A DNA stretch of 64,000 nt from an uncultured Pseudomonadota bacterium (GCA_949297185.1 CASFRM010000006.1:16374-80373); one strand, 5' to 3'; numbered from the stretch's first letter, positions 36,874 through 63,691 are shown. The notes: generated from the letters alone by a model not told the origin. Numbers and translations are program-made.

Positions 36874-37464
36874 CTATTGTTCAAACCTAAAAATTACTTT
36901 ATTTACGTCGTCACAGACATCAGCAACATTATTTCGTTTTGCCGGCAAAGCAAACTCCTCGTTACTCCAGCTAAAAATCTGCTCAGATTTATTATTCTTG
37001 ATTACTAATTCGCTGACCGATAACCAAAAATCGTGTTCAAATTGATGTGAAGCCAAGGCTATACATTGTTTTTTATTTAAGTCGTTATAAGCAATTACAA
37101 AACTCCTCATTGACGGCATAACTGCCATACCGCTTTCATCAGCTCCAATCTCCACATCATTAGCAAAATATCCTTTTAACTTGCCGTTTTCTACCCGCAT
37201 ATCGGTCGGATAAAGCTTCTGATTTATCACTTCTTTTGTGCTTAAACCCCAAAAGTCCGGTCGCATCTTATAAGCCCCGCAGATGTTTTTTGCCAAAATT
37301 GTAACTTGATTACCGGCCTCAAAAGCGCCCACATTTTGCTGTCCGCGAACTATTGCTAATAAAGACAAGGCCAAGGCAAACACAATCACTGCCGAAATTA
37401 TGGCAACCTTCCATTGGCAAAACATTACCCACAAAATTGTAAAAAAGGCTTTTATCTTTCCCAT
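36874..37464 (-). CDS. Hypothetical bitopic membrane protein in the pilus operon (minor-pilin-like or PilM-like?)
   Basis: A single N-terminal TM (VAIISAVIVFALALSLLAIV) and a ~150-aa periplasmic domain with 3 Cys. Lacks a G/xxxxE prepilin site. Confidence 0.5.
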   Translation of the reverse strand: MGKIKAFFTILWVMFCQWKVAIISAVIVFALALSLLAIVRGQQNVGAFEAGNQVTILAKNICGAYKMRPDFWGLSTKEVINQKLYPTDMRVENGKLKGYFANDVEIGADESGMAVMPSMRSFVIAYNDLNKKQCIALASHQFEHDFWLSVSELVIKNNKSEQIFSWSNEEFALPAKRNNVADVCDDVNKVIFRFEQ

Positions 37465-37473
37465 AGTTTCACC

Positions 37474-38610: not shown

Positions 38611-38625
38611 TTTATCGCCCTCAAA

Positions 38626-40299: not shown

Positions 40300-40326
40300 T
40301 TTTCACCTTAATTAATCAAATCAAAG

Positions 40327-42988: not shown

Positions 42989-43010
42989 TTTTTTATCTCC
43001 TGCAAAGAAG

Positions 43011-44621: not shown

Positions 44622-45324
44622 CCTCCCTTGTTTCAACTACTAAGACACGGTTTCCTTTATAAAAAGTAGCCATGGGCGCAGGTTTTGCTCTGGCAAAATT
44701 TCTGATTAATGCCGAAGACACATCAGCAAATCTTCCTCTAAACATAGCTCCTGCAGCTAAAGTATAATTTCTGTTAGAATTCCATACCAATCTCCAACCG
44801 GATCTTTCGCACCAGTCAGAAAGTAGACCTTTCAAAGTGCTGCCTTCTTCCGCAAGCCAATCCTCGACTGCGTCGTCCCCGCTGTTATACTCAGCGTCGC
44901 TGGCATTTGCGGTTTCAGCTTCGGAAATAGCCTCGTTAACAGCTTCTTCGTAATCTGTAACTTCTTCATCTATTGTCGGAGGAATTGCAGCAGCCATATT
45001 GCTCCCGACACCGTTAGACAAGATGTACTGATCTGTAACACTTCTTTCGCCGAATTCACGATAATCAGCATCAGTCATTCTATAATCAACAAAACGGTCG
45101 TTAGCATTGTTCTGCGCGGTGGGCGTGATGGTGGGTGCCGGTTGATTTCCTTCTTGGGTGTAAATTACCACTTCCTCTACCGGCGCTTCCTCATCATTCC
45201 ATGGTAAGCTCCAAAGAGTATATGTATTGCTACATCCGCTAAGAGCAATAACAGACAATACCGCCAGAAGGCAATTCTTTTTTAAGTACATCTTTGCAAT
45301 CCTTTGAATAGATTTTCCCATCAT
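44602..45324 (-). CDS. TcpQ/PilL-like pilus lipoprotein
   Basis: Lipobox LSGC. The C-terminal STLKGLLSDWCERSGWRLVWNSNRNYTLAAGAMFRGRFADVSSALIRNF matches the TcpQ (toxin-coregulated pilus protein Q) / R64 PilL domain pattern. Confidence 0.7.
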   Translation of the reverse strand: MMGKSIQRIAKMYLKKNCLLAVLSVIALSGCSNTYTLWSLPWNDEEAPVEEVVIYTQEGNQPAPTITPTAQNNANDRFVDYRMTDADYREFGERSVTDQYILSNGVGSNMAAAIPPTIDEEVTDYEEAVNEAISEAETANASDAEYNSGDDAVEDWLAEEGSTLKGLLSDWCERSGWRLVWNSNRNYTLAAGAMFRGRFADVSSALIRNFARAKPAPMATFYKGNRVLVVETREDENAYN

Positions 45325-45378
45325 ATTTTCCTTATCATACTATTGAAAAATAAATAATCAAGCACCGTCAAACAGTTA

Positions 45379-47046
45379 TTACCATTGTATATGCTGTGGC
45401 GAGTTTATTGTATTTATTTTTCCGTTTGTTCCTCCTTTGTTTTTGCTTTTTATTGTTCGCAAAACAAAACTATTTGGCTCTCGCGAGGTAAACACTGTGT
45501 TTATTTTCGCGTAATCAAGCCCCTTATTGGTTAAAATGTTATACAGCAGGTTAAGCCTCTTCTGTTGTAGGTTTGTTGAGCTGGTGCCGTCAATGCGTAT
45601 CTCCAATGCTGCATCCGGTGTCTCCGCAATTTTTCCGGCAAACGCCTGTACCCAACGCAAGGTTTGTCCTGAAATTTCGGCTCGATTTGGCTGAAACGAA
45701 AGTCTAATTTCTGTCGGCATTATCGATAGCCTTTTTGTGACTTTGCCTTTTTGAGAAATAGATCTTTTGATTTTTGCTTTAGCCAAGGCGCGTTCTTTTG
45801 CTTGGTTTATCTCCTCTTCGGAGCTTTGCTTGCCAAATACGGAGTTTAGAGCCCGTAAAATTGTAGGCTTTTCTTCTTTCGCCGGTTCTGCCTTTTTTTG
45901 TTTATCCTCGACCAAGGGCTGTTCTTTTGTCTTTTCAGCATCCGAAGGGGGTGTTGTGAGTTCCTCTATGTCTTCATCTTCAATAGCGGACAATAGGGCG
46001 GTATTTCTTTTTTCTGAATGTTCTTTGGCTTCTTTGATTTTTTCTTGGTTTTTTATTTTTGCTTCAATAATTTTCTCTTTCTTGGCATCTTCCGAAGTCG
46101 CAGGATATGCAAGCGTGGGGGTCAGATTTTCATCTTTTATTATTTCTTCTGGTATTGGTATAATAAGATTTTTTACTGTCTCGGCTGCAACTTTTACTCC
46201 GCCTTCTTTTATTTCTGGAGACAGGTGTTTTTTGATTTCGTCATTCGTTGCCTTTGAGGATAACCTGTTTTTTGATTTTCCTCCTATTTGAGCAACTTCC
46301 CAAGGTGAATCTTTTAACGACTTCCATTCTTGTTGCTCAACAGCTTCGTCTTTTTCAGTAGATGATTTTTTTAATTCTTTTTCCATGCTTTCTATAGGAA
46401 TGTTTTTTTCATTCAAAGCCACATGGTTAAGCTTCTGGGGGTCACCGATTTTAATCTGTTTGTCGGCCAAAAGTATTTTCTGCTGTTTATCATCCTGCAA
46501 AGGTATTGAAATGTCATCATATTTTACAACATTTTTCTTAGGTAAAAGTTGTTCTTCTTGTTCGCTCCCGTTATAAACCTTTGCTGCAACTATTTTTACA
46601 TCTGCTTTCTTTTGAGGCGCGGTTTGTGGTGTGTATACAGCCTCGGTCTCAATCTTAGGACTTTCCAAAGGTTTATCTGGCGAGTACAGCACATCAGCTA
46701 ATATAACCTTGTTATTATCCTCAATTTTTTCTTCTATCGGATCAATGCTTCGTTCGATTTCCAGCGGAAAATCAAAATTGTCTAATGTATCTGCCAATAT
46801 CACCTCATGGGATTTGTCGTCTAGAGGTTGTTTGGTGACTTCGGGCAGCACATTAAGAGCAATTTTTTTTACGGGATAAGGCGAAGCGGAAGTGTCTTTT
46901 AAGAATAGCACAATGCTTTTATCTTTAATGTCAAGGGGTTGAATTTCAGTGGGTTTTTCATACCAAAAAGCCCTGTTTGCAGCCATTATAGCAAACAGAG
47001 ATACCGAAAAACTGTAAGCAAAAGCTTTAAGAACTGTTTTTGGCAT
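45379..47046 (-). CDS. Hypothetical first gene of the pilus operon (555 aa; K/E-rich, possible degenerate OmpA/MotB-like C-terminus)
   Basis: Start set at ATG 47046 (AGAGGGG RBS). N-terminal TM or signal sequence, a long K/E/P-rich region with VILAD-x-L repeats, and a C-terminal ~110 aa (EIRIDGTSSTNLQQKRLNLLYNILTNKGLDYAKI) weakly OmpA_C-like. Confidence 0.6.
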   Translation of the reverse strand: MPKTVLKAFAYSFSVSLFAIMAANRAFWYEKPTEIQPLDIKDKSIVLFLKDTSASPYPVKKIALNVLPEVTKQPLDDKSHEVILADTLDNFDFPLEIERSIDPIEEKIEDNNKVILADVLYSPDKPLESPKIETEAVYTPQTAPQKKADVKIVAAKVYNGSEQEEQLLPKKNVVKYDDISIPLQDDKQQKILLADKQIKIGDPQKLNHVALNEKNIPIESMEKELKKSSTEKDEAVEQQEWKSLKDSPWEVAQIGGKSKNRLSSKATNDEIKKHLSPEIKEGGVKVAAETVKNLIIPIPEEIIKDENLTPTLAYPATSEDAKKEKIIEAKIKNQEKIKEAKEHSEKRNTALLSAIEDEDIEELTTPPSDAEKTKEQPLVEDKQKKAEPAKEEKPTILRALNSVFGKQSSEEEINQAKERALAKAKIKRSISQKGKVTKRLSIMPTEIRLSFQPNRAEISGQTLRWVQAFAGKIAETPDAALEIRIDGTSSTNLQQKRLNLLYNILTNKGLDYAKINTVFTSREPNSFVLRTIKSKNKGGTNGKINTINSPQHIQW

Positions 47047-47247
47047 AAGACAAACCCCTCTAAAGTCTAGATAAATCAAAATGCGACTCTTGGCAATAGC
47101 GGCATAAAAAAATCCACAAATTTTTAGAAAAAAATAAAAAATTTTGTTGAAATAAAAAAATCAAAAAATTGTAACACTTTTTAAGTAATTTATATGTTAT
47201 AATTTCTTCAATAGGATAAATTTGTCCCATAAGCTTGGCGAAAAACG

Positions 47248-50987: not shown

Positions 50988-51653
50988 CTTTTCCACCATA
51001 TCAACCGATTTTTTGGGCGCATCATTCCAGAAATCAAGATATTGCTGGTTATGATTTTCGATTCCCGGTGTATCGCTGATAATTCGCATTGATAAAAACG
51101 GTTTGTTATAAATAAAGCAAGTTTGTGCTATTGCGGCCGATTCCATATCCACGGCAACGGCTTCGGGGAAATTTGCTTTTATTTTTCTAAGTTCATCAAT
51201 ATCAGAAATAAATTGATCACCCGACACAATATCGGCACAAACAATTTTTACATCAGACTTTATGGATTCAAACAGCTTAACCAATTTTTCGTCGGAGGCA
51301 AATTTAGCCGGCAGACCTTGTACCTGTCCTTTTTCATTACCTGTTCCGCACCAAACATCGTGGTAAGCAATATTTTTGGCTGCGACAATATCCATAACTC
51401 CGATTACTTTATCGATTCCTCCGGCAACACCAAGGTTGATAATACAATCGGGATTAAAGTTTTTTATCATTTCTATGCAGGCTATTGCCGCACATACTTT
51501 CCCTATACCGCTTTGTACCAAATAAATTTGGTGACTGCCGAGATTACCGCAGTAAAACTCCAGGTGATTAACATTTGTTTTTTTGCAATTCACCAATTTA
51601 TCGGCAAAAAGCTTTAGTTCTTTTTGCATGGCAACAATAAGGCCTATTTTCAT
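50970..51653 (-). CDS. mtnN: 5'-methylthioadenosine/S-adenosylhomocysteine nucleosidase
   Basis: MKIGLIVAMQKE, GIGKV and VDMESAAIAQ motifs. Confidence 0.85.
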   Translation of the reverse strand: MKIGLIVAMQKELKLFADKLVNCKKTNVNHLEFYCGNLGSHQIYLVQSGIGKVCAAIACIEMIKNFNPDCIINLGVAGGIDKVIGVMDIVAAKNIAYHDVWCGTGNEKGQVQGLPAKFASDEKLVKLFESIKSDVKIVCADIVSGDQFISDIDELRKIKANFPEAVAVDMESAAIAQTCFIYNKPFLSMRIISDTPGIENHNQQYLDFWNDAPKKSVDMVEKLLDLL

Positions 51654-51668
51654 CAGATTTTCCTTTAT

Positions 51669-52190
51669 TTAATATTTAAGTACAGAAATGACGGGAGCAT
51701 ATTTTTCAACTTTTTTAGAGCCGTTCAAGTCAGTAAGCTCAATCAAGAATGCCGTTGCAACAATATTTCCCTCAAGTCGATTTACCAATTTACAAGCAGC
51801 CTCGACCGTACCGCCGGTGGCTAAAAGATCGTCAATAATCAGGATACTTTCTCCTTTTTCAATGGAGTCAGTATGAATTTCAAGTTGTGCCTGACCATAT
51901 TCCAAATCATAACTTTCGCTTATGGTTTGAGCGGGTAGTTTCCCCGGTTTTCTCATCAAGATCAATCCGCAGCCAAGTTTATAGGCCAAAGGAGCGCCAA
52001 AGATATATCCTCGAGATTCAATAGCGGCAATTTTATCGATTTTTTTATCTTTGAACAGGCTGTAAAACTCATCAATAATAGCCTTGAAACAATCCGGATC
52101 TTTGATCGCTGTGGTAATATCCTTAAACAGAATACCTTTTTTAGGAAAATCAGGTACATCGCGAATAAATTGTTTAATAAAATCAGACAT
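51669..52190 (-). CDS. apt: Adenine phosphoribosyltransferase
   Basis: PRPP-binding motif ILIIDDLLATGGT. DFPKKGILFKDIT at the N-terminus. Confidence 0.93.
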   Translation of the reverse strand: MSDFIKQFIRDVPDFPKKGILFKDITTAIKDPDCFKAIIDEFYSLFKDKKIDKIAAIESRGYIFGAPLAYKLGCGLILMRKPGKLPAQTISESYDLEYGQAQLEIHTDSIEKGESILIIDDLLATGGTVEAACKLVNRLEGNIVATAFLIELTDLNGSKKVEKYAPVISVLKY

Positions 52191-52205
52191 AATCGGTTCT
52201 TTCTG

Positions 52206-52685
52206 TTATTTAGGGTAAATAAGGTTTTCATCGGTTGCAACAAGAAGTGTTTCATTTAGGTAGCGGTTAGCCAGGAACTTGGCCATTGGCAAGTTCATAT
52301 CCAAATAATTTCCGCAATCTTTGGCGGCAGCTCCCGGTACTTCGCCCTCAAAATCGCGGATAAAAGCAAACATTTCAATAACCAAGGGCAATATTTGCCT
52401 AGAAGAGTATTCCCCGCTTATGAGCATATAAAATCCGGTGCGGCATCCCATAGGGCCGAAATATACGGTCTTTTTTGCAAATTCGGGATGATTTCGTAAA
52501 AAAGTAGCTCCAAGGTGCTCAATAGTATGAATTTCTGCGGTGTTCATTACCGGTTCAAAATTAGGTTTGGTCATTCTTAAATCAAAAGATGTGATTGTTT
52601 GTCCCTCAAAATTATCGATTCTTGAAACATAGACCCCGCGGTTTAGACGCAGATGATCAACGGTAAAGCTGGCAATTTTTTCCAT
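52206..52685 (-). CDS. luxS: S-ribosylhomocysteine lyase LuxS
   Basis: SFTVDH, metal site HTIEH and catalytic GPMGCRTGFY. Confidence 0.9.
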   Translation of the reverse strand: MEKIASFTVDHLRLNRGVYVSRIDNFEGQTITSFDLRMTKPNFEPVMNTAEIHTIEHLGATFLRNHPEFAKKTVYFGPMGCRTGFYMLISGEYSSRQILPLVIEMFAFIRDFEGEVPGAAAKDCGNYLDMNLPMAKFLANRYLNETLLVATDENLIYPK

Positions 52686-52827
52686 AGAAACCTCTTTTCA
52701 TAACAATTAATCTGAGGCGATTATATATAAAGTGCAAAAATAGACAACAACGGATTTAAAAAAACACCAAAAATTAACAATTAGCGATTATAACAAGCAA
52801 TATATATGTGTATAAGGAGGAGTATTT

Positions 52828-53724
52828 ATGAGTAAAGTACTATCTTTTGATATCGGAGGCACCAAGATAGCTTATTCGATAATTAATGAACACGGTGAGT
52901 TTTTAAACGAAATCATAAAAGTCTCAACCCCAAAAACCCCACAAGGTATTTATGAGCTGTTAAAAACAACGGTTAAAGGTTTGGAGGAAGAAATTGACGG
53001 TGTTGCCATTGCCACAGCCGGAGCCATAAATCGCGATGGAACGGCCATCACCTCAAATGTCGGCAATTTGCCGGAAGGCTATAACAAGACAGACTTTATG
53101 AGCTTGACCGACAAACCGGTATTGCTTGAAAACGATGCCAACTCAGCCGGTTGGGCCGAATATTCAATCGGAGCGGCGCAAGGTTGTAGAGATGTTGTTG
53201 TCCTGACGCTGGGAACCGGTGTCGGAGCCGGCATAATTGTAGACGGTAAATTGTTAAAAGGCAAATCAGGTGCCGCCGGAGAGATGCATTTTCCGGTAGA
53301 TTCAGGTCATAAGAGAATATGCGGTGGTTGTGGAATGTACGATTGTTTTGAATCTTTTGCATCCGGTACCGGATTAAATGTCAATGCCCGAGAGAGTATG
53401 GGACCTGAGGCCACCAGTTATGATGTAATAAGAGGCCTAAAAGAGGGTAATCATCAAGCTAAGGTAGCATTTGACCGCTGGCAAGATTACCTAAAACGAG
53501 GTCTGACCATGCTTGCCAATATATTTGATCCTGAGATGATAGTATTATCCGGTTCTATGGCCAAATTTGTTGAGTATGAGAAGCTTAATCAAGATGTAAA
53601 TTCGCAAATTTTGACCCAGCCGTTTGAACTAAAAGAGGCCAAATTTGAGAATAATGCAGGTATGATAGGAGCAGCACTTTTGCTGATTAGTAAATTAAAT
53701 TCTTCAGCTGAAAGAGGTCAATAA
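52828..53724 (+). CDS. ROK family sugar kinase
   Basis: N-terminal FDIGGTKIA ATP-binding motif and a ROK zinc motif (GHKRICGGCGMYDCFE). Confidence 0.8.
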   Translation: MSKVLSFDIGGTKIAYSIINEHGEFLNEIIKVSTPKTPQGIYELLKTTVKGLEEEIDGVAIATAGAINRDGTAITSNVGNLPEGYNKTDFMSLTDKPVLLENDANSAGWAEYSIGAAQGCRDVVVLTLGTGVGAGIIVDGKLLKGKSGAAGEMHFPVDSGHKRICGGCGMYDCFESFASGTGLNVNARESMGPEATSYDVIRGLKEGNHQAKVAFDRWQDYLKRGLTMLANIFDPEMIVLSGSMAKFVEYEKLNQDVNSQILTQPFELKEAKFENNAGMIGAALLLISKLNSSAERGQ

Positions 53725-53867
53725 AAAACGATTCTTTTTATATTCACGAGGCAAAGACTGCTAAAAATGCCGTTTAGAAATTTTTAAGGTCTGTGAATTT
53801 TTTGTTACAGCAAAAATAATTAAGTGTAAACAATATGTTAACCATTTTTTGTTAAGAGTGTTTTTGC

Positions 53868-53882
53868 TGGCAAAATTTGCCA
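53868..53882. promoter_or_regulatory. Perfect palindrome TGGCAAAATTTGCCA upstream of the first virB2-like gene (candidate operator)
   Basis: A 7-1-7 inverted repeat 59 nt upstream of the ATG. A second palindrome, TTTTGCAAAA, lies at 53913-53922. Confidence 0.25.
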
Positions 53883-53940
53883 AAATTATGTATTCTAAAA
53901 GAGTAAATTAAGTTTTGCAAAATTTAAAAGGAGAAAGACT

Positions 53941-54282
53941 ATGCAATTTATAAAGAACAATATTTGGACCTTGTGTCTTGTAGTTTTGGCAGGTTTGTTT
54001 GCCTTTACTGGTGATGCAGCCGCTCAGGGTTCAGTAATGGAACTTGGTAAACAAAAAGCATTGAATGTGTTTACCTCAGTTAAAACAATTATTTTCATCG
54101 TTGGTGGTTTTGGTCTTGTAGGTATTGCCTTTGCCGCTATTTTCGGAAAAGTAAACTGGAAATGGTTTGCAGCTTTGGCTGTAGGTTTGGCAATTTTGGC
54201 TGCTGCCGGATCAATTGTTAACTACGCAACCGGTGATAGCATTAGTGGCTTTAACGATACCTTCTCGTCAGCTACTAACTAA
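53941..54282 (+). CDS. virB2: VirB2/TrbC-like T4SS pilin (paralog 1, canonical size)
   Basis: 113 aa. Signal peptide (…GDAAA/QG) and two hydrophobic helices separated by GKVNWKW. AAAGGAG RBS. Lies upstream of virB3-virB4. Confidence 0.7.
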   Translation: MQFIKNNIWTLCLVVLAGLFAFTGDAAAQGSVMELGKQKALNVFTSVKTIIFIVGGFGLVGIAFAAIFGKVNWKWFAALAVGLAILAAAGSIVNYATGDSISGFNDTFSSATN

Positions 54283-54295
54283 GGTTTTAGGTCAA

Positions 54296-54334
54296 GGCTT
54301 CGAGGCTTATGCAAAAGCCTCGGGGCCTAAGGCC
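54296..54334 (+). other. Stem-loop directly after the pilin gene (no T-run; possible mRNA-stabilising or attenuating hairpin)
   Basis: cgaggctt-atgcaa-aagcctcg core (54301-54322) with an extended imperfect stem, plus a ggcctaaggcc palindrome. Confidence 0.35.
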
Positions 54335-54430
54335 TAAATAAAAGAAGGCTGGATTTATTTTTATACAAGTAACGGTGTGCAAAAACAAACTCAGTCAATA
54401 AAAGCGAACTAAGGCAAATAGGAGGATAAG

Positions 54431-55108
54431 ATGTATAAGTTAAAAGACATATTAAAAGTGCTTCTTATAGCCTTGTTTGTTTGTGTTTACAGCGCCGGAG
54501 ATGTTTACGCACAGACTGATATGTGCGGAGGCCCGTGTCCAGAAGGAAGTGTATGTACTAAAACAATGTCAAATGTAAATGGTGCAGACGAATGGAGATG
54601 CGTGACCAAAGCAAAACCGACAGGAGATGTTAATACGGAAGGCCAAGGAGGTGCGACACAAAATGCCAACTTCTGCGGTACTGACGGCGGAGCGTTTTCT
54701 CAACTTGTAACTACCGGAGTTCTGATTTTCAAAAGATTACGCGATTTGATATATGTTGTAGCCGGTTTTGGTATTATAGCGGTAGCTGTCGGAGGATTCT
54801 TTGGTAACCTCAACTGGAAGTGGCTGGGCGCGATAATCATTTCGCTGGTGGTTATAGCTTCTGCCGGAGAAATTGTTGCCATGATAACAGGATGTAGCAG
54901 TTTTGATGGAGGTCTCATTACCAACACACTAACACATCCCACCGGCATGAGTACACAAGAATTTAATGATACCTATACCGAAAGAGTAAAGTTAAACAAG
55001 ACCATAGACTGGAACGACAGTATGGATGTTTATACTCCACCTAACAGTTCTAGTGCTGCCGAAGCAGCCATTGAAGAGACTGGTTTAGAAGAAAACACTG
55101 CAGAATAA
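54431..55108 (+). CDS. VirB2-like pilin paralog 2 with a Cys-rich N-domain and C-terminal extension
   Basis: 225 aa. Signal peptide and CGGPCPEGSVCTK...WRCV. The core LIYVVAGFGIIAVAVGGFFGNLNWKWLGAIIISLVVIASAGEIV aligns with paralog 1. Confidence 0.6.
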   Translation: MYKLKDILKVLLIALFVCVYSAGDVYAQTDMCGGPCPEGSVCTKTMSNVNGADEWRCVTKAKPTGDVNTEGQGGATQNANFCGTDGGAFSQLVTTGVLIFKRLRDLIYVVAGFGIIAVAVGGFFGNLNWKWLGAIIISLVVIASAGEIVAMITGCSSFDGGLITNTLTHPTGMSTQEFNDTYTERVKLNKTIDWNDSMDVYTPPNSSSAAEAAIEETGLEENTAE

Positions 55109-55143
55109 GATTATAAGGACGGATAAGGATACAGGAGGGAGCC

Positions 55144-58100
55144 ATGATGAAATTATCTAAAATAAGCAAGGTAATAATGCTGATTGGCATAATTATGGCC
55201 TTCTCAACTAGTAATGTTTTTGCAGCCAGTGACTGCGAAAAGCAATGTAGCGAAACATACAAAGGTAATCGCTCGCAAATATCTGCTTGTAAAGCTCAGT
55301 GTAAAGCCGACGAGGCTAACCAAAAAGCAACAAATACACAGGCGGCACAAGATACTGCGATAAATGATAGATGGAAGCAAGCGCAGTCAACAAAAGAAAT
55401 GACGCAGAACACCTATACAGATGCTTCGGTAAAATATAATACCTGTGTCGCAACTAAAGGTGCAAATGCTTGTCAGGCTGAAAAGAAAGCAATGGAAGAT
55501 GCCAAGTTTGACCTTGACGCTGCCAATGAATCTTATAACGATGCTCAAAAAGATGCTTCAAAGGCCTACTGGGAAAATAAAAAAATGCAAGAGAAGGCTG
55601 ATGCGGCAGCCGCCAAGGCTGAGCAGAAGCAGTTAAAAGCCGATCAAAAAGCATTAAAAGATGCCGAAAAAGCTCTCAAAAAATGTGAAAAAGAAAACGG
55701 AGAAGGTAATTGCGCTGCAGAAGAATCCGCTGTTGCCGAGGCTCAGCAAAAGGTTGATTCTCATAATCAAGCCGTTGAAGGTACATCAGGAGAAGATGCG
55801 CAACTAAACGCATTACAAAATGAATTTACCAGCGCTGGTTCAGATTATGGTAAACAATCTGATGCTCTCAACTCGATGAAAAATTATAGCAATGAACTTA
55901 CGGTCGCAGCCGCAGCCGCCTCTGCGGAATGTACAAGATACAGTGCAATGACATCTCAAGATGCCAGAGCAAAGGCAAAAGATGCCTGTGCTCAGGCAGA
56001 GGCATTAAAAGCTCAAGCAGAAGCCGCTCAATCAGCATATGAAGAAGCAAAAAATGCTATGGCCGACAGACCGTTATCAGAAAGTGTATTGGCTGCTCAG
56101 GGTCGTGTAAAACAAGGAACAAAAAACGACAATAGCTACGGAATAGTAGACATAGATGAAGCTCGCCAAATATCAATGAGTGGCAGCGATGCAAACAGTT
56201 TTGCCGGCTATAGGTCTGAAAAATTTAATTATGACTCCGGAGGAGATGTTCTAGAAAAGATAACTCGTCGTGCAGCCAGAGTTGTCGTTGGTCTCAAACC
56301 CTTAGTGTATATATTTGCCGGTTTTGGCTTAATCGGCTTTGCGTGGGCTGCAATTTTCAATAAATTAAGCTGGAAGTGGTTTGCTAATATTGCAATGGGT
56401 TTGTTCTTGGTCGCTAATATGGGACGACTGATTGAATATATGGTTGCCGGAGATGGTGGTACCCACTATTATATAGGGGTGTGGGACGATGGCGCGACAC
56501 CAACCGGAACTAAAACCGATGGCGCTAACCAACTAGCCAATGCCTTCAAAGATAGCTATTATGTATATGGTGATAATGTAGATAGACAAACAGGTTTAAG
56601 AATGTTTGAGCTTAGCGCGCAGGGTACAGATACGGAAAAAGTCGCAGAAGAATTCACGGCATCTGCAGCAGGGTTCTGCCAAGGTACCAGCGGTTCTGGT
56701 TGGGCTAACTTCACCAGCTGTGTCAAAGATGTTATTTCAACGGCTAAAAAAGCTGCCGATACTGTAAAGACAACGGTTGCCGTTGCTCAAGATATGAAGG
56801 CTCGTGTCGATACCGTAAAAGATACTGTTTCCAATATCACGCAGGCTGCTAAAAATATGAAAGGGGCAAGCTTAACTGAAATTGTAACCAATACAGGTAT
56901 AATTTTAAGCAATGTTAACACAGCTGTCTCTACCACCACTGGAGCTATTGGTTCGGTTACCAATGCTATGTCTACAATATCTAACAACGTCCAAGATATG
57001 GGCAAGAGTGTAGAACAACAAAAAGAATTGCAAGACCGCCGCAACAGCGGAGAAGCCACCAATGCCTTTGACGCTATGTTGAAAGGTCAGGAGTGGGATG
57101 CTTCAACCGGAGGTGTAGAAAATGTTGATGGCGAATGGGCCGGCCAGAGTAATTTCATAACAACGACCAATGACTTAGCTTCAGATATCAGCGACAAGTC
57201 ATCACAACTTAACGGTTTAGCTCAAGACGGTTTGATGCAGGTCGGTGTGGTTACCAACGCTATAGAAAGTGCACCAATCCTTCCGGGAGGTAAGAGCCTG
57301 TATGATAAATATGCAGATAATAAAGAGCAAAAGGTACAACAAAATCGTGCTCAAGCACAGGCTGCCGCCGATCAAGCTTATCGCGAAAGCAATGCCGGCA
57401 AAAATGAGGATTATCGAGCCAAGAGCGAACAAGTAAGCAATATGTATAACGATATGCAGAAGCAAGAACAAGAAGTTAAGCAGTTGCAAAATCAAAAAGC
57501 CAGTGCCGAAAAGGCAGTTGAGCAGAATTGTAACGGCGATAACGATACCTCTCCTTTGTGTCAAGCTTCGCGCAATAGCTTGAAGGCAGTTGAGGATTCT
57601 CTACAGGCCAAAGAAGAGCAATTAAATAAGACCAAAGATGAGTATGATGAGGCCAAGAGGTCAATGGAACACGCCTATAACGAGGCTCTAGATAGTAACA
57701 TATCTAAGGCTGAGGAAGATTACGAAAAGGCAGCTAAGGATGCAGATGATATTTGTAGCAAAAATCCTGGAAGTTCTGAATGCGCAAATGCTCGTCAAAA
57801 AGCTCTTGATGCCGCCAATACTCTGACTTCTTATGTAAATGAGAAAGAAAATGCAACCGGCGATAGTCGCTATGAGACCTCAGAGGATACGGCCAATAAG
57901 CTGGTAAGCAATGAAGATGAACAAAAACTCAAAGAAATGGAAAAACAACTTGCCTATGAGCAAGAGCAAGAAGCCAATAGATTGAAACACGAGGCCGAGA
58001 TTGCTAACAGCCAGTATGAGCAAGCAATGTCTGAAGCAGACGCACTCTACTCTGCAGTTAATAGCCAAGAAGAACAAGTAAAACAACTTGAACAAGAAGC

Positions 58101-59418
58101 TAAGAATAAACAACAAAATGCAGATAAGGCTTGTGCAACAGATCCAAATAGCTCGCTTTGTGCAACAGCCAGAGAGGCTTCGTCTGCCGCCAATGCTGCT
58201 CTTAATAATAAAAAAGACCAGCTCGAGCAGACCAAAAATGATTATGATGCAGCCAAAAACAAAGCCGAAGACGCATATCAAAATGCTCTGACTGCCAACC
58301 AAAATCAGGCTCAAAGAGATTTGGAAAACGCTAAAGAAAAATCTGAAAATGCCAAAGCAACTCTTGATGAGGTTAATAGCAAGATTGATGGTGCCAAAGA
58401 TGATATGAATACGGCCAAAGATGAGTACAATCAAGCCATGAAAGACGCTCAGGCTGCGCAAGATGCATACAATCAAGCTGTTTCAAGCGGTGCAAATCAG
58501 TCCGAAATCAATAGATTGAAGCGCGAATACGAAAATAAGCTTGCTGAGATGAGTGACAAAAAGGACAATTACGAAGAAAAGAATAAAGAATACAATGATT
58601 TGTCCAAACAAAAAGAACAAGCTCAACGCGATTATAACAGCGCGTACTCAGAGGCTAACGATGCTGCCGGCAGACTGGATTCTTATACCAATGAGGATAT
58701 CAACCAGACCGGTGATAGTCGTTTAACCTCAAGTGAAGATGTTGCAAATCAAATATTGGTTAACCAATATGAGAGCGAAACTAATCCCAATGCAGTAGCT
58801 CAGGCTTCTAAAAACAGCTATGTCGAGCAAAAGAACAAAACCGATGTCGCCGAATATACCAAAAATGAGAAAGAAGCTGCAGCTAAGAATGCCTATAACG
58901 AGTATCAAAAGGCGCTACAACGTTGTCAACAAAGCGGAAATCCGAGTGATTGTCAGCTGGCAGACCGCCTGTCAAGCCAGTACAATCTTGCAGCCAGCGA
59001 AGCCGAGGCCGCTAAGCAAGAGTATGAAAGCTTAAACAATGAACTTCAAGGTTATGAAAGCGACTACAAACGCAAAGCTCTGGAGTCAGAAAAATATAAA
59101 CAGCGCGAATATCAGGCAGATATGCAAGAAGCATCCTCGGATATCAATAAATATGAGCGGTTGGTATCTCAACAACGCCGAGTAGTAGATGATGCTGCGC
59201 TTAGATACACTCAAGCCAAGAATAGCTTGCAAGAAGGCGATGAAGCCGGCTTAAAACTAGCAGCTCAGCTCTACGACGAATACAAAGAAGCCAAAGCTTT
59301 GTATGATGACTATCAGAGCAAGTTAAATCAAGCCAGAAATAGGCTGAGTACAGCTCAAAGCAATTATGATAAATCAGTAGCGGAAGCCAGAAGACTTGAA
59401 AAAGAACTAAACGGCTAA
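55144..59418 (+). CDS. Giant (1424 aa) coiled-coil protein with an embedded VirB2-like two-helix core
   Basis: Signal peptide. The core at 56281-56450 (LVYIFAGFGLIGFAWAAIFNKLSWKWFANIAMGLFLVANMGRLIEY) aligns with both upstream pilin paralogs. It is flanked by a ~380-aa N-terminal and a ~970-aa C-terminal A/E/K/Q-rich coiled coil with recurrent C-x8-9-C loops. Confidence 0.85.
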   Translation: MMKLSKISKVIMLIGIIMAFSTSNVFAASDCEKQCSETYKGNRSQISACKAQCKADEANQKATNTQAAQDTAINDRWKQAQSTKEMTQNTYTDASVKYNTCVATKGANACQAEKKAMEDAKFDLDAANESYNDAQKDASKAYWENKKMQEKADAAAAKAEQKQLKADQKALKDAEKALKKCEKENGEGNCAAEESAVAEAQQKVDSHNQAVEGTSGEDAQLNALQNEFTSAGSDYGKQSDALNSMKNYSNELTVAAAAASAECTRYSAMTSQDARAKAKDACAQAEALKAQAEAAQSAYEEAKNAMADRPLSESVLAAQGRVKQGTKNDNSYGIVDIDEARQISMSGSDANSFAGYRSEKFNYDSGGDVLEKITRRAARVVVGLKPLVYIFAGFGLIGFAWAAIFNKLSWKWFANIAMGLFLVANMGRLIEYMVAGDGGTHYYIGVWDDGATPTGTKTDGANQLANAFKDSYYVYGDNVDRQTGLRMFELSAQGTDTEKVAEEFTASAAGFCQGTSGSGWANFTSCVKDVISTAKKAADTVKTTVAVAQDMKARVDTVKDTVSNITQAAKNMKGASLTEIVTNTGIILSNVNTAVSTTTGAIGSVTNAMSTISNNVQDMGKSVEQQKELQDRRNSGEATNAFDAMLKGQEWDASTGGVENVDGEWAGQSNFITTTNDLASDISDKSSQLNGLAQDGLMQVGVVTNAIESAPILPGGKSLYDKYADNKEQKVQQNRAQAQAAADQAYRESNAGKNEDYRAKSEQVSNMYNDMQKQEQEVKQLQNQKASAEKAVEQNCNGDNDTSPLCQASRNSLKAVEDSLQAKEEQLNKTKDEYDEAKRSMEHAYNEALDSNISKAEEDYEKAAKDADDICSKNPGSSECANARQKALDAANTLTSYVNEKENATGDSRYETSEDTANKLVSNEDEQKLKEMEKQLAYEQEQEANRLKHEAEIANSQYEQAMSEADALYSAVNSQEEQVKQLEQEAKNKQQNADKACATDPNSSLCATAREASSAANAALNNKKDQLEQTKNDYDAAKNKAEDAYQNALTANQNQAQRDLENAKEKSENAKATLDEVNSKIDGAKDDMNTAKDEYNQAMKDAQAAQDAYNQAVSSGANQSEINRLKREYENKLAEMSDKKDNYEEKNKEYNDLSKQKEQAQRDYNSAYSEANDAAGRLDSYTNEDINQTGDSRLTSSEDVANQILVNQYESETNPNAVAQASKNSYVEQKNKTDVAEYTKNEKEAAAKNAYNEYQKALQRCQQSGNPSDCQLADRLSSQYNLAASEAEAAKQEYESLNNELQGYESDYKRKALESEKYKQREYQADMQEASSDINKYERLVSQQRRVVDDAALRYTQAKNSLQEGDEAGLKLAAQLYDEYKEAKALYDDYQSKLNQARNRLSTAQSNYDKSVAEARRLEKELNG

Positions 59419-59440: not shown

Positions 59441-59491
59441 AAAACGGAAGTATGCTCTAACATAAAGTTGTGTAATACTTCCGTTTTTTTT
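59441..59491 (+). terminator. Rho-independent terminator between the giant gene and virB3
   Basis: 12-bp stem aaaacggaagta / tacttccgtttt with a 23-nt loop, followed by a T-run. Confidence 0.6.
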
Positions 59492-59589: not shown

Positions 59590-59880
59590 ATGCGAGAAGT
59601 AATATTAAAGGCAGTTGCTAATCCTCCCAAGATTCTGTGGGGTCCGTTTTTGCCGGTTCTGCTCAATCTCGGTGTGCAATTTCCGATAATGTTTATGTTT
59701 ATGGGGACATTTAATGTCAACCCGATATGGTTTATGGCATCCTTGGTTTTAGGGCATGTCATCAGTGTTTTTATGGGAATAAAAGAACCTCACATATCAG
59801 CCATGATACAGGCTTATGGTCAAAGCGCTAAAAAAACAACCAACCTCTATAAAGTAAAGGGGAATAAATTTGCACCCTGA
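59590..59880 (+). CDS. virB3: T4SS protein VirB3-like
   Basis: 96 aa with two TM helices. N-terminal LKAVANPPKILWGPFLPVLLNLGV resembles the VirB3 motif. Overlaps virB4 by 11 nt. Confidence 0.7.
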   Translation: MREVILKAVANPPKILWGPFLPVLLNLGVQFPIMFMFMGTFNVNPIWFMASLVLGHVISVFMGIKEPHISAMIQAYGQSAKKTTNLYKVKGNKFAP

Positions 59881-62299
59881 TTATGATTTTTTCTCGATCT
59901 TCGTCGAAGGTCTGTCAAGTTTTGAAATATTGGTGGCCGTTATAGGTTTTATTTCGGCAGCGGCATTTGCCGGCTTTTGGGCAACCAAATTCGGTCATTT
60001 GGTCTTGCCTCATCCGAGAGAGTCCCGCGTTTCGGACTTTATGCCGTTTGAAAAGCTCCTTTCTGACGGAATGACGATTCGTTGCTATAATGGTTCTTTG
60101 GCGCGTGTATTTAGGGTCACCGGAGCCGATTTGGCCTTTGCTACGGAAGAAAAGGTAGCCTCTATGCTGGAGGCCAGAAAGTCGTGGATAGACGGAATGT
60201 CTGACCTGCAAGTTACCTGTCGAGTAATTACCATAAGAGAAAAAGTACCTCTGGAAGAAAATGTTAGCAATTTTAACAACCCGTTGCTCGAACAGATATC
60301 TGAGGTTTGGCAAGAGAATATAAACAGAGTATTCTTCAATACCCACTACATAGTACTTTCGGTAGCAGACCGCGATGAAAATCTAAAAGACCTAAACTAT
60401 GCCTCGCAGTCTTTGGTTGCCACCTTAAACGACTATGGCGTAAAGCCCTTGATTGAGGAAGAGGGAAGTTCTGCTGATGACAGTCCGTTTATAGTCTACT
60501 CAAAACTATGTTCTCCGGTATCAAGACCTAAGCCCAAAGTTAGAGGTGCAGTTGGAGCGCAGCTCAATCAGCTGCTAACTGCTGACCATATCCACTTCAC
60601 GGGCGAAGATGGTATCATCAAATTTTTCTCCGGAGAAAAAGAGTTGTATGAAGTTGTTATGGGAATACGTTCTTCCGGAGACTATATGGACGAGGCGATG
60701 GTTTCTTCGCTTCTTGCAATAGATTGCGAACTGGTTTTGTTGCACAATATTCGCCCGATATTTAAGCCGCAAGCTCGCGCGTTATTGTTACAACAACAAA
60801 GAATGGCCGCCATGACCAGCTTTTCCGGCGATGTTATAGACCAATACAGTGAAGTCCTTTCCGCTATTGAAGAAAGCGATAGCGACCACCAAGCTCTTAC
60901 CGAATATGCTATGGCAATAATGCTAAGAGGTGAAAGCAAAGAAGAAATAGATAATGCCGAGAGCGAAGTTCAAAGAATATGTCGTTTGTTCAGTGTAACT
61001 CCGGTTAGGGAAGGCTGGGTCGCTCAAGCAACATTCTTCAATCAGTTTCCAACATATGAAACTCTACCCAGAACATATCGCTATTTATCAAGGGTTGTCG
61101 CGACGGCCGTTTCGTTTGACAAGCCTTCGGAAGGTTTCTCTAAGTCTGACTGGGGACCGGGAGCAATTACCATATTTCGCACCACCTCGGGTTCTGCGTA
61201 TCGTTTTCAGTTCCATGTTTCATCGGAAGATTCTGCAGTCGCTCACTGTTGCATTATCGGACCGACCGGTCAAGGTAAAACCACATTACTTACCTTTTTG
61301 GCCGGACAAGCTATGCGGCACGCCGATTTGAAAGTGTTCTTTTTTGACCGCCACCGAGGTGCCGAAATATTTACTCGTGCAGTTAAAGGCGCTTATGTAG
61401 GCTTTGAAGGTGATGAAAAAAATGTTTCTTTGAACCCGTTTGCATGTGCCAATACTCCCAATAACCGAGCTTTTCTGCGTCGCTGGATGCGTGCGATTAC
61501 GCTTGTTGATGATGCTGTTTCAGAAAAAGAAATTGCTCGTGCAGTAACTACAGCTTTTGATTACTTGCGTCCTGAAGAAAGAATTATGAGTAATCTGTAT
61601 AAAAGCTGCTTTTCTCCGACCGGCAATATGCGCCGAGAACTGTTTAAGTGGGTAAACCCTGATCAGTACGGTAATATTTTCAACTCTCAGGATGATAGTT
61701 TGGATCTAAAAAGCAAGCGCTTTATGGCATTTGACTTTACTCATATATTTGAGGACGAAACTTTAGCTCCTGCCGTAATTAGTTACATCATGCACCGAAT
61801 ACAGTCCGAAACCGGAGACACAGGTGTTCCTTCGCTAATTATGATTGATGAAACAGCGCCGATGTTAAAACACCCGATGTTTAGAGACTATTTTGCCATT
61901 GGTTTGCAAGAAGGTCGTAAAAAACGCCAAGCCTATTTGTGCGCATTCCAGCAGCCCAATATTATCGATAAGCTTGGTGTTGGCGAGGTTATTCGTGGTC
62001 AATGCCAAACCGTAATCTTTTTCCGCAACCCTCAAGCCATGCCGGAAGACTATGTAAACTGGAACTTAACCGAGGCGGAAACAGACTTTATTTTTGGTAA
62101 AAGTTATCGTGATTTTCCATATGCAATCCTTTTGTCCAGACCGGCAACAGGTGAGTCAGTTATATTAGATGTCGATTTAAGCGGATTAGGTCCCTATCTC
62201 AAAATATACAATTCCGGAAGAAAGAATGTTTTGTTGGTAGAAGAACTGATAAAAGAATATGGTGAAGACAACTTTGTTACAAAATATTTAAATCTTTAG
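59870..62299 (+). CDS. virB4: T4SS ATPase VirB4 (CagE/TrbE family)
   Basis: 809 aa with a TTG start. Walker A GPTGQGKTT, Walker B LIMIDETAP and typical VirB4 length. Confidence 0.92.
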   Translation: MHPDYDFFSIFVEGLSSFEILVAVIGFISAAAFAGFWATKFGHLVLPHPRESRVSDFMPFEKLLSDGMTIRCYNGSLARVFRVTGADLAFATEEKVASMLEARKSWIDGMSDLQVTCRVITIREKVPLEENVSNFNNPLLEQISEVWQENINRVFFNTHYIVLSVADRDENLKDLNYASQSLVATLNDYGVKPLIEEEGSSADDSPFIVYSKLCSPVSRPKPKVRGAVGAQLNQLLTADHIHFTGEDGIIKFFSGEKELYEVVMGIRSSGDYMDEAMVSSLLAIDCELVLLHNIRPIFKPQARALLLQQQRMAAMTSFSGDVIDQYSEVLSAIEESDSDHQALTEYAMAIMLRGESKEEIDNAESEVQRICRLFSVTPVREGWVAQATFFNQFPTYETLPRTYRYLSRVVATAVSFDKPSEGFSKSDWGPGAITIFRTTSGSAYRFQFHVSSEDSAVAHCCIIGPTGQGKTTLLTFLAGQAMRHADLKVFFFDRHRGAEIFTRAVKGAYVGFEGDEKNVSLNPFACANTPNNRAFLRRWMRAITLVDDAVSEKEIARAVTTAFDYLRPEERIMSNLYKSCFSPTGNMRRELFKWVNPDQYGNIFNSQDDSLDLKSKRFMAFDFTHIFEDETLAPAVISYIMHRIQSETGDTGVPSLIMIDETAPMLKHPMFRDYFAIGLQEGRKKRQAYLCAFQQPNIIDKLGVGEVIRGQCQTVIFFRNPQAMPEDYVNWNLTEAETDFIFGKSYRDFPYAILLSRPATGESVILDVDLSGLGPYLKIYNSGRKNVLLVEELIKEYGEDNFVTKYLNL

Positions 62300-62362: not shown

Positions 62363-63691
62363 ATGGGGAGAACAGAGATGAACAGGCACATAAAGACATT
62401 TGCAATATTGGCTTGCATATTTTTTTCGCACTCATCCTATGCCATTATCCCTACGGCAGATATTCCCGGTACCATTCAGGCTGCGAATGAGGTTAGCAAT
62501 ACAATTAACAATGTGAAGGAAAGTGTTGCACAGGTTACACAATATCAAAAGACTATGGCGGCCATCGGTACAGCCAAGAAGAGCGTTTCGGAATTTATAA
62601 GTAATCAAAAAGAAAAATTGCAAGAAAAGCTTGATAAGATTGAGGAATATAAGAAAAAAGCTGAAGAATATAAAGCTATGGCCTTGTCATATAAGCAAGA
62701 AGCAGAAGAGAGGGTAGCATATTACAAAGATTTAGCCGAAGACACGGTAGACACGGCACAAAGCTATAAACAACAAGCACAAGATGTTATTGGCGCAGTT
62801 TCTGATAAAACAAGCGGAGTTGCCGTAGCAAAAACAGAAGAAGCAAATGATACAGCCGAAACTGAACAAGATAAAGCGGTTGCAGAAGAAAACAACAATG
62901 CTGGAGAAATTGAGATGGTTGAGACTTCTCCCAGCACAAACAGGACCGCGTTTTCTTCAGCTGAAACAAGCTTCCCATCAAATGTAGAGGCAATAAAATC
63001 ACCAGCTGCAGCAGCATCTAACATATCTAAAACGACGCCTAAAGTGCAGCCGATTGAAGTAAAAGCTATTCAGAATGACACTGTATCTCCAGAAAATAAA
63101 GTAGAAATAAAAGCTCCGCAGCAAATCACTCCCACTCGCGCAACCTTTAAGAGCTCATTTTTAACACCCCATGTCATCAGAAATAGTTATCCGCTTGCTT
63201 TTGCCAGCATATTGGAGATAGACGCATTAAAAGGAGGAAGTACTCCCGATAAAGTGCTTATCGTTCCCGATGCCATATCCGTACATTGCGACCTAAATTA
63301 TGAGGACGCAACAGAAGAAGGCAAATTTGACGAGTGTCTGACTTCCATCAACCAAAAACTTAATTCCGAAGTGTCAGATGCCGCCGATATGCAAGAAAAG
63401 TCAACCGTACAAACGGATTTTATAAATGGTTATGTTGAATATGTTACAGCTTCTTTTCTGGAGGCTTTTGCCATATACAACGAAAGCTTAACTTTTAAAA
63501 ATAACATGGTGGATCCTGTAACTACCTCCAATATGGAGACCGTAGATTCTGCTTGGGCGTATGCAAAGGAGATGAACCGCATTATCGGTACTCGCTATAA
63601 TACATTGCGCCGTTTGTGGGCTCGGCAACTTGGTATAAAATCTTATAACTCGTATATTTACGCTGATTTGTCCCAAGAAGATGAAAAATAG
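62363..63691 (+). CDS. Hypothetical secreted T4SS-associated protein (possible VirB5/TrbJ analog)
   Basis: Signal peptide. The N-terminal helical segment IIPTADIPGTIQAANEVSNTINNVKESVAQVTQYQK is reminiscent of VirB5/TrbJ N-termini, followed by a low-complexity acidic linker and a C-terminal helical domain. Confidence 0.55.
   Translation: MGRTEMNRHIKTFAILACIFFSHSSYAIIPTADIPGTIQAANEVSNTINNVKESVAQVTQYQKTMAAIGTAKKSVSEFISNQKEKLQEKLDKIEEYKKKAEEYKAMALSYKQEAEERVAYYKDLAEDTVDTAQSYKQQAQDVIGAVSDKTSGVAVAKTEEANDTAETEQDKAVAEENNNAGEIEMVETSPSTNRTAFSSAETSFPSNVEAIKSPAAAASNISKTTPKVQPIEVKAIQNDTVSPENKVEIKAPQQITPTRATFKSSFLTPHVIRNSYPLAFASILEIDALKGGSTPDKVLIVPDAISVHCDLNYEDATEEGKFDECLTSINQKLNSEVSDAADMQEKSTVQTDFINGYVEYVTASFLEAFAIYNESLTFKNNMVDPVTTSNMETVDSAWAYAKEMNRIIGTRYNTLRRLWARQLGIKSYNSYIYADLSQEDEK

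Follow-up and report, generated by a model that had tools for sequence, protein, structure and literature searches.

Organization of the Locus and of the Giant Pilin Gene

The analyzed DNA was a stretch of 64,000 nucleotides (nt) from an uncultured Pseudomonadota bacterium (GCA_949297185.1, CASFRM010000006.1:16374-80373), called the window in the following. It carried a chromosomal type IV secretion system (T4SS) locus, in which three genes for VirB2-type pilins were followed by a virB3-like gene and virB4 (Table 1). The third pilin gene, virB2c, is the subject of this report; it encoded a giant protein of 1424 amino acids (aa), to which all residue numbers refer. A preliminary description of the window had placed an open reading frame (ORF) of this length at 55144-59418 and had given it a terminator of its own. 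Both were present: the ORF was uninterrupted and had a ribosome-binding site, and it was followed by a stable hairpin and a run of eight T, which a consensus scanner missed because the loop was too long (21 nt).

The products of the three pilin genes formed a graded size series of 113, 225, and 1424 aa. VirB2b was an extended pilin with a ~70-aa Cys-rich insert between the signal peptide and the hairpin, a ~70-aa tail and six Cys in total, and both its leader and its hairpin aligned with the giant protein. The gap between virB2b and virB2c was 35 nt.

The signal peptide that had been claimed for the giant protein was found in the sequence and the hydropathy profile as MMKLSKISKVIMLIGIIMAFSTSNVFA, followed by AS. 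The leader MLKLSKISKVIL..G.LLAFS was kept throughout the family of giant pilins in the alignments. Besides the signal peptide, the protein contained only two strongly hydrophobic segments, and both were located in the pilin core. The domain after the core (residues 438-720) ranked second in conservation within the protein, after the core itself, and it accompanied the hairpin in distant relatives (P0166 and P0184, for example). The C-terminal ~230 residues were also kept in several distant relatives. In the preliminary description, the ~970 aa that follow the core had been regarded as one coiled coil rich in A, E, K, Q, and N. This was correct for residues ~721-1424, which were predicted to form long helices, but residues 438-720 turned out to be a separate domain rich in T, S, G, V, and N. 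An internal duplication within the helix array (~766-960 vs. ~967-1165) had a z-score of 9.6 in uncorrected local alignments against shuffles, and a composition-corrected BLAST self-comparison of the giant protein detected no repeats. The similarity between the N-terminal and C-terminal domains was not significant (z 2.6).

Table 1. Features of the T4SS locus and its surroundings in the window. dG, predicted folding free energy.
Feature	Position	Strand	Description and basis
Type IVb pilus cluster	36874-47079	-	PilS/bundlin-like pilin, T2SSF, T2SSE ATPase, two unassigned genes, secretin, TcpQ, 566-aa unknown
luxS	52206-52685	-	LuxS (autoinducer-2 synthase)
virB2a	53941-54282	+	canonical 113-aa VirB2/TrbC pilin, presumed major pilin; Pfam TrbC 4.2e-9, 36.9 bits vs. 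cut-off 27.9
RNA hairpin	54286-54338	+	directly after virB2a, very stable, GC-rich, no U tract; dG -34.4 kcal/mol, z -6.5
virB2b	54431-55108	+	225-aa VirB2 paralog; Pfam TrbC 4.3e-6, 27.3 bits, just under cut-off
virB2c	55144-59418	+	giant pilin gene, 1424 aa; ATG start, stop codon 59416-59418
virB2c, Sec signal peptide	55144-55224	+	residues 1-27, predicted cleavage between VFA and AS; sequence, hydropathy
virB2c, N-terminal insert	55225-56241	+	residues 28-366, helical, A/K/E/Q-rich, five Cys pairs, varies between species
virB2c, embedded mature-pilin module	56242-56454	+	residues 367-437, two hydrophobic helices, loop N-K-L-S-W-K-W; VirB2a alignment
virB2c, post-core conserved domain	56455-57303	+	residues 438-720, T/S/G/V/N-rich, invariant Cys512/Cys526 pair; conserved columns in alignments A1 and A2
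virB2c, helical hairpin array	57304-59415	+	residues 721-1424, long antiparallel alpha-helical hairpins, predicted disulfide-bracketed turns; AlphaFold2
Intrinsic-terminator-like hairpin	59441-59491	+	stem AAAACGGAAGTAT/ATACTTCCGTTTT, then T8; dG -19.4 kcal/mol, z -5.7
virB3-like	59590-59880	+	96-aa membrane protein, assignment from position and size alone; no Pfam match
virB4	59870-62299	+	VirB4 ATPase, TTG start, 11-nt overlap with virB3; TIGR00929 3.3e-115, Pfam CagE_TrbE_VirB 1e-15
Secreted coiled-coil protein	62363-63691	+	442 aa, usual virB5 slot, first of several such genes; signal peptide, no family match

The Embedded Pilin Module

Residues 367-437 aligned with VirB2a at 44% identity and 68% positives over 71 aa (E 4e-19), and the core aligned with VirB2b at 31% identity (E 5e-11). 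These alignments bore out the preliminary description, in which a core at 56281-56450 (residues 380-436) had been aligned with both upstream paralogs. The homology opened at residue 30 of VirB2a and ended near its C-terminus. As residue 30 adjoins the likely signal-peptide cleavage site of VirB2a, this indicated that a whole mature-pilin module was embedded in the giant protein.

In profile searches, the giant protein itself scored below the curated cut-off of the Pfam TrbC family (PF04956; 27.9 bits), with 15.9 bits (E 0.016) for the whole protein and 18.3 bits (E 0.0027) for the fragment 330-760. The low score was attributed to the 340-aa insert, which splits the leader from the hairpin, because the model spans both. 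Relatives of 665-812 aa in which the signal peptide abuts the hairpin exceeded the cut-off (30.0-37.6 bits), and 28 of the 29 family fragments matched TrbC at the same site (best E 1.7e-5). A VirB2/TrbC profile match, as foreseen for the core, was thus obtained for the family but stayed sub-threshold for the giant protein. Together with the likeness to VirB2a, which is itself validated by Pfam, these matches show that the core is, judged by its sequence, a VirB2/TrbC homologue and a true pilin module of the VirB2 family.

Other hallmarks of VirB2 pilins were present as well. The protein combined its signal peptide with two hydrophobic helices (~377-435, by hydropathy) joined by the short basic loop NKLSWKW, and its gene was located beside virB3 and virB4 in a T4SS operon. 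In the AlphaFold2 (AF2) prediction of residues 330-760, the core was a helix-loop-helix with a predicted local distance difference test (pLDDT) of 70-79. The pilin module contained no Cys. The classical pilin hallmarks that the giant protein lacked were a score above the profile cut-off and the small size of known pilins (precursor ~70-130 aa, mature ~7-10 kDa).

Distribution and Authenticity of the Family

A database search returned 314 homologues of the giant protein at E <= 1e-3, and the same embedded hairpin was found in all 120 homologues listed, which were proteins of ~800-2155 aa. Among 1.84 billion cluster representatives, 470 clusters at 50% identity matched residues 340-740 at E <= 1e-3. 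In these relatives the hairpin stood either right after the signal peptide, with a long C-terminal extension, or deep inside the protein, and many of them were very Cys-rich. A scan of one genome per GTDB species yielded 57 loci, all from metagenome-assembled genomes of uncultured gut Alphaproteobacteria, which had been sampled from humans (Hadza and Brazilian cohorts among them), roe deer, sheep, and rabbits and from the rumen. This lineage may be the one frequently referred to as the gut order RF32. The search for VirB2 cores within large proteins, which had been suggested in the preliminary description, thus recovered a broad family. A few relatives (P0191, P0172, P0176, P0180, and P0182) contained two to about five tandem VirB2-type hairpins per polypeptide.

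Three (occasionally four) tandem VirB2 hairpins followed by virB3-virB4 were found in all 54 loci that extended far enough, and in each of them, as in the window, the giant gene occupied the pilin slot that had been noted upstream of virB3-virB4. Two distant relatives, P0184 and P0136, showed the same order (loci L062 and L063), and no homologue was found without virB3-virB4. By position, the giant protein is therefore the third pilin of a T4SS that is chromosomal and present throughout the lineage. The closest plasmid VirB4, that of Microvirga pMVF16-3, was 39.5% identical and came from a conjugative operon of the ordinary type, in which the only VirB2 had 117 aa. The extension therefore represents an innovation of the gut lineage. 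An origin of the locus on a conjugative plasmid or an integrative and conjugative element was rejected in view of the flanking housekeeping genes, the layout kept across species, and the distance to the nearest plasmid VirB4, which is accompanied by a normal pilin.

An assembly chimera or a frame-fused pseudogene has to be considered because the window was ~100% identical to the GTDB representative contig L005 (CASEYY010000015.1) only at ~51000-58000 and 70-92% identical elsewhere, with a breakpoint inside virB2c. However, the identical 1424-aa protein (P0001) was found on contigs from three sources (NCBI, ENA, and Logan), an independent single-run contig matched the window from xerD to virB3, and the architecture recurred in at least 314 homologues, 470 clusters, and at least 57 species. 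The intact ORF, with its ribosome-binding site and terminator, also speaks against an artefact, the chance of which is practically nil. The ~7-kb block of identity itself extended from a nucleosidase gene into virB2c, of which it covered the first two thirds, with its 3' breakpoint in the coiled-coil region near 58000; virB4, outside the block, was 79-87% identical. This block could have arisen by recent recombination between strains, or one of the metagenome assemblies could be chimeric.

Cysteines and Predicted Structure of the Flanks

All 20 Cys of the giant protein fell into 10 pairs spaced 4-19 residues apart. By chance, ~9 of the 20 would be expected in pairs, and all 20 were paired in none of 2000 simulations. 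The six motifs quoted in the preliminary description (CVATKGANAC, CEKENGEGNC, CNGDNDTSPLC, CSKNPGSSEC, CATDPNSSLC, and CQQSGNPSDC) were all recovered. Among 35 non-redundant family members, 556 of 566 Cys beyond the leader lay in close pairs, on both flanks, and none was in the hairpin. The paired Cys, the signal peptide, and the even number of membrane helices suggested that both flanks share one oxidizing, extracytoplasmic compartment, in line with the earlier proposal. We infer this membrane topology, and the formation of the disulfides, from these features. A cytoplasmic location of the flanks was rejected in view of the signal peptide and the paired Cys.

An AF2 model of residues 225-1424, based on an alignment of 37 sequences, had a pLDDT of 85-94 from about residue 734 to 1424. 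This region was predicted to be all helix, with most helices 46-111 residues long (~7-16 nm) and short turns between them, and the last helix continued to the final residue; with high confidence, AF2 thus folded the C-terminal part, for which a coiled coil had been expected, into a series of long helical hairpins. The Cys pairs 796/806, 871/880, 997/1006, and 1261/1270 each bracketed one predicted turn, and Cys263/282 bracketed a helix-turn-helix in the N-terminal insert (pLDDT 67-86), so that five of the ten pairs bracketed predicted helix turns. On this model, the flanks are best described as antiparallel helical-hairpin arrays with disulfide-stapled turns, the global arrangement of which is uncertain (predicted template modeling score 0.33). 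The separate AF2 run over residues 330-760 had a mean pLDDT of 48, with only the hairpin helices at 70-79, and was unusable for a fold search.

No PDB entry matched the 1200-residue model in Foldseek at E <= 0.001. The best-scoring entries, at E >= 0.3, were generic helical structures (designed bundles, TolC, colicin E3/E9 hairpins, ISG75, and PrgA), and they were not taken as evidence. PDB sequence searches with the family profile A1, the 113-aa pilin, and the 442-aa protein gave no VirB2, VirB5, or other significant match, the best being MCP at E 0.024. Neither the giant protein nor the 442-aa protein matched a VirB5/TrbJ profile or solved structure (Pfam, NCBIfam, and PDB sequences), and the giant protein did not match the VirB10/TrbI C-terminal domain (Pfam and NCBIfam). 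The beta-barrel translocator or anchor of trimeric autotransporters was likewise absent, with helices reaching the C-terminus and a single chance-level match to a fragment of a trimeric autotransporter adhesin (E 0.52). Because the defining domains were searched for and not found, the giant protein was placed outside the families that it resembles in design (CagY, the extended VirB6 proteins, and the pilin-domain adhesins of chaperone-usher and type IVb pili).

Conservation Contrast and Variation of the Putative Ectodomains

Conservation was compared as median identity over 33 species loci. The hairpin of the giant protein (82-85%) was as conserved as the mature part of VirB2a (79%), VirB3 (79%), and VirB4 (86%), whereas the flanks were far more variable, with 25% for the N-terminal insert, 37% for the post-core domain, and 23-26% for the C-terminal regions. 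The length of the flanks varied as well. The N-terminal insert ranged from 0 to ~860 aa in relatives, and the C-terminal extension from a few hundred to more than 1300 aa, with wholly different sequence types between clades; the total length of the third pilin ranged from a few hundred to 2155 aa. In locus L047, the third pilin lacked both the coiled coil and the N-terminal insert, and its signal peptide and hairpin were followed by an acidic, Cys-rich repeat tail of 520 aa. To judge from these comparisons of sequence, the putative ectodomain is replaced wholesale between clades, which goes beyond mere divergence.

Variation was also found among close relatives. A 16-aa perfect tandem repeat, QPLTGGDKPT(N/D)NGGTN, was present in the C-terminal extension of P0056-P0120 (e.g., residues 747-875 of P0081). 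Sixty-three near-identical variants from one species-level group fell into 11 length classes of 1084-1260 aa, nearly all separated by steps of 16 aa that resulted from the repeat copy number. These steps may reflect genuine differences between strains or repeats that collapsed during assembly.

Neighboring Genes

The virB3-like protein was 57-99% identical among the loci and was always located between the third pilin and virB4. VirB4 was 67-99% identical (at least 77% in most cases), and the neighboring XerD and ROK-kinase were less conserved across the same species (55-92 and 64-95%, respectively). This suggested an unusually strong constraint on the T4SS.

Downstream of virB4 there were four to six genes for proteins with signal peptides (window 62363-63691; L005 16248-21108; L004 16585-23639; L062 13105-18157; L063 15299-20359). 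In many of these secreted proteins, the mature part opened with a motif like (I/F)-P-x-(I/V)-D, after which came coiled coil or low-complexity sequence. None of the proteins had a family match, and they were far more variable (21-71% identity) than VirB4. They may be divergent VirB5-like paralogs, a view without profile support. The first of them, the 442-aa protein, was only 21-71% identical among the loci, and an exact database look-up of it returned no record. When the T4SS genes downstream in L002 and L004 and the extended relatives were scanned with Pfam and NCBIfam, no adhesin, enzyme, VirB5, VirB6, VirB8, VirB9, or VirB10 domains were detected; matches to Borrelia_P83, DUF948, and SMC-like families in these scans were compositional and sub-threshold.

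A hairpin of comparable stability to that after virB2a in the window was found at the same position in most of 61 loci, with differing sequences and a median of -28.9 kcal/mol; the shuffle control covered the window locus only. The hairpin could possibly be an attenuator or an mRNA stabilizer that gives a high ratio of major to minor pilin. Together with the 35-nt gap between virB2b and virB2c, it is in keeping with a single abundant major pilin and a lower expression of the two minor pilins.

The window also contained a type IVb pilus cluster on the opposite strand, and in L004, L062, and L063 the same cluster was located directly upstream of the T4SS pilin genes, in divergent orientation. 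This adjacency in relatives suggested that the two surface machines may be functionally linked. A luxS gene near the T4SS locus was present in only some of the related loci.

Possible Roles of the Giant Pilin

Here, we propose that the giant protein is a minor pilin of this T4SS, which is chromosomal and specific to the lineage, and that it presents variable ectodomains on the pilus or the cell surface. We give this proposal a little short of an even chance. The Sec signal peptide would export the N-terminal insert, and the module 367-437 would insert into the inner membrane as a helical hairpin, with the K-x-x-W-K-W loop in the cytoplasm and both large flanks in the periplasm. There, about ten disulfides would form and staple the turns of the long helical hairpins. 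The module may then be extracted at the VirB3/VirB4/VirB6 platform and built as a minor subunit into the pilus or a pilus-like surface structure, most plausibly at or near the tip. The flanks would form a variable fibre that reaches out over tens of nanometres and serves contact or adhesion to a target cell, or they would coat the pilus. The preliminary description had already named pilus display, a cap or base role, and a surface layer as possible functions; all of these are conjectural, and the protein could also stay in the inner membrane or be processed.

Three arguments favor display over a purely structural role: the module is as well conserved as a pilin, the ectodomains are swapped wholesale and polymorphic in length, and these ectodomains are large compared with the periplasm. 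A module whose conservation equals that of the canonical pilin and the machinery would be expected to be handled like a pilin. The termini of F and T pilins are on the exterior of the pilus, and F pilin displays short epitopes that are fused to it. As both pilin termini point outward in known conjugative pili, the giant flanks would project outside, and steric considerations favor a sparse incorporation or one at the tip. From these arguments, incorporation into the pilus, surface exposure, and a function in adhesion or contact were inferred.

Several points weigh against this proposal. It would be difficult to thread folded flanks of ~340 and ~990 aa through the outer-membrane core complex, or to fit them into a pilus lattice unless sparsely or at the tip, and the several secreted proteins in the VirB5 slot could already supply tip functions. 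No adhesin-type domain was detected in the giant protein or its relatives by Pfam, NCBIfam, and Foldseek. The AF2 prediction was of low confidence for the post-core domain (pLDDT < 50) and, in the run over residues 225-1424, for the pilin module. The differences in repeat copy number could partly be short-read assembly artefacts caused by repeat collapse, and the low identity of the flanks is weak evidence for surface exposure because coiled coil evolves fast whether exposed or not.

The steric difficulty would disappear if the protein were a scaffold of the envelope, with the hairpin as only an anchor or docking element for the T4SS inner-membrane complex and with periplasmic flanks that never polymerize. 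The signal peptide, two-helix anchor, and periplasmic disulfides would fit this explanation equally well. The post-core domain and the last ~230 residues are kept in distant relatives, as contacts with the machine would be, and nearly all examined downstream T4SS genes encode secreted coiled-coil proteins, which suggests an unusual periplasmic architecture. However, the ectodomain architecture is not conserved, which would be unusual for a part of a machine that is itself 80-99% conserved, and ~700 residues of 7-16-nm helices would be oversized for the periplasm unless tightly bundled. Nor would a simple anchor need the whole module at ~85% identity, including the shared WKW loop. We regard the scaffold as unlikely, though it deserves serious attention. 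The protein could also be a precursor: cleavage on both sides of the module would free an ordinary-sized pilin together with soluble helical fragments that are periplasmic or secreted. RP4 TrbC and Agrobacterium VirB2 are processed at both ends, the homology to VirB2a opens beside the likely cleavage site of the latter and ends near its C-terminus, and the module is flanked by invariant motifs, T-R-R-A-A before and I-E-Y after. Such a polyprotein is nevertheless improbable. Neither a recognizable peptidase motif nor a gene for a dedicated peptidase turned up in the locus, the post-core domain adjoins the hairpin and is conserved together with it, and a third route to a plain pilin seems redundant next to two ordinary pilin genes upstream. 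Third pilins of sister clades carry the signal peptide directly before the hairpin, so excision of an N-terminal part is not a general requirement.

The hairpin could finally be a transient export or recognition element of the T4SS, from which an effector-like or surface-layer protein is released. The location of the gene within the T4SS operon and the C-terminal ~230 residues kept in several distant relatives are in line with release, and the helical hairpins loosely, not significantly, resemble colicin receptor-binding hairpins and trypanosome surface coat proteins. These structural matches, however, were at E >= 0.3, and a Sec signal peptide with two strongly hydrophobic helices predicts stable membrane integration. 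The hairpin is also the most conserved part of the protein, which would not be expected of a passenger signal, and release is very improbable.

If the display proposal holds in its strongest form, the embedded module would be a genuine polymerizing pilin, and the T4SS pilus would be tipped or decorated with disulfide-stapled coiled-coil fibres of > 100 kDa, whose ectodomains are exchanged between species and strains. It would then be the first natural pilin-domain adhesin of a T4SS pilus and a likely determinant of the host or partner that is contacted. This version is possible but rather doubtful. Polymerization of the module would mean that T4SS pili can gain target specificity through modular fusion, and would offer a natural model for presenting large proteins on conjugative pili. 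If this is true, the giant pilin could also serve as a surface antigen or a variable marker and so help to study or isolate these bacteria, which have never been grown in culture. Should it instead be retained in the membrane, the giant protein still points to a strongly derived T4SS, most partners of which are unannotated secreted coiled-coil proteins.

Comparison with Known Systems

VirB2 pilins have been treated as uniformly small, and here a whole gut lineage keeps a paralog with hundreds to ~2000 extra residues. The existence of a lineage-wide family of giant VirB2 pilins, with ectodomains predicted to be extracytoplasmic, disulfide-stapled helical hairpins, is well supported by comparison and surprising for the T4SS field; the roles proposed for it are more conjectural. 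The preliminary description had stated that no equivalent was known. In agreement with this, targeted literature searches yielded nothing relevant on extended, giant, or fused VirB2 or on the T4SS of these gut Alphaproteobacteria, and a 2025 field-wide review (PMC12857230) described no extended VirB2.

The giant protein shares with the VirB2/TrbC pilins (PF04956; Agrobacterium VirB2, RP4 TrbC, and R388 TrwL) the homologous two-helix hairpin, the short basic loop, the signal peptide, the gene position directly upstream of virB3-virB4, and the predicted periplasmic or exterior location of both termini. It differs from them by its 1424 aa, against ~70-130 aa for known precursors, by its 340-aa insert and 990-aa C-terminal extension, and by its sub-threshold Pfam score; its polymerization is putative.

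Helicobacter pylori CagY is a VirB10 homologue with a very large alpha-helical repeat region that contains Cys at regular intervals, is surface-exposed, and varies in length by recombination. It resembles the giant pilin by analogy, as a T4SS core subunit with a large Cys-containing helical region, but it is not a pilin, and no sequence relationship between them was detected by Pfam and NCBIfam.

Two alphaproteobacterial systems are also comparable. The Trw T4SS of Bartonella carries tandem variant copies of trwL (VirB2) and trwJ (VirB5) (in part, PMC12857230). Like the locus described here, it is a chromosomal alphaproteobacterial T4SS with amplified, variable genes for surface-exposed pilus components beside conserved machinery, and its proposed role is variable adhesion to host cells. 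However, the Trw pilin copies are all small, whereas large swappable ectodomains are attached to one pilin paralog here. The extended VirB6 proteins of Rickettsiales, noted in the same review, which contains no extended VirB2 (PMC12857230), are likewise membrane-embedded T4SS subunits of host-associated alphaproteobacteria with big hydrophilic domains, but they belong to another subunit family, the polytopic VirB6.

In its design logic, the giant protein also resembles proteins of other pili, if the display proposal is right. To our knowledge, no fusion of a pilin with an ectodomain has been described for T4SS (VirB2) pili. Pilin-domain adhesins are known from type 1 pili (FimH) and, as the minor pilins CofB and TcpB, from type IVb pili. 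Their folds and assembly machines are unrelated to those of the giant pilin, but the logic is shared: a pilin module that allows entry into the fibre is fused to an ectodomain at the tip.

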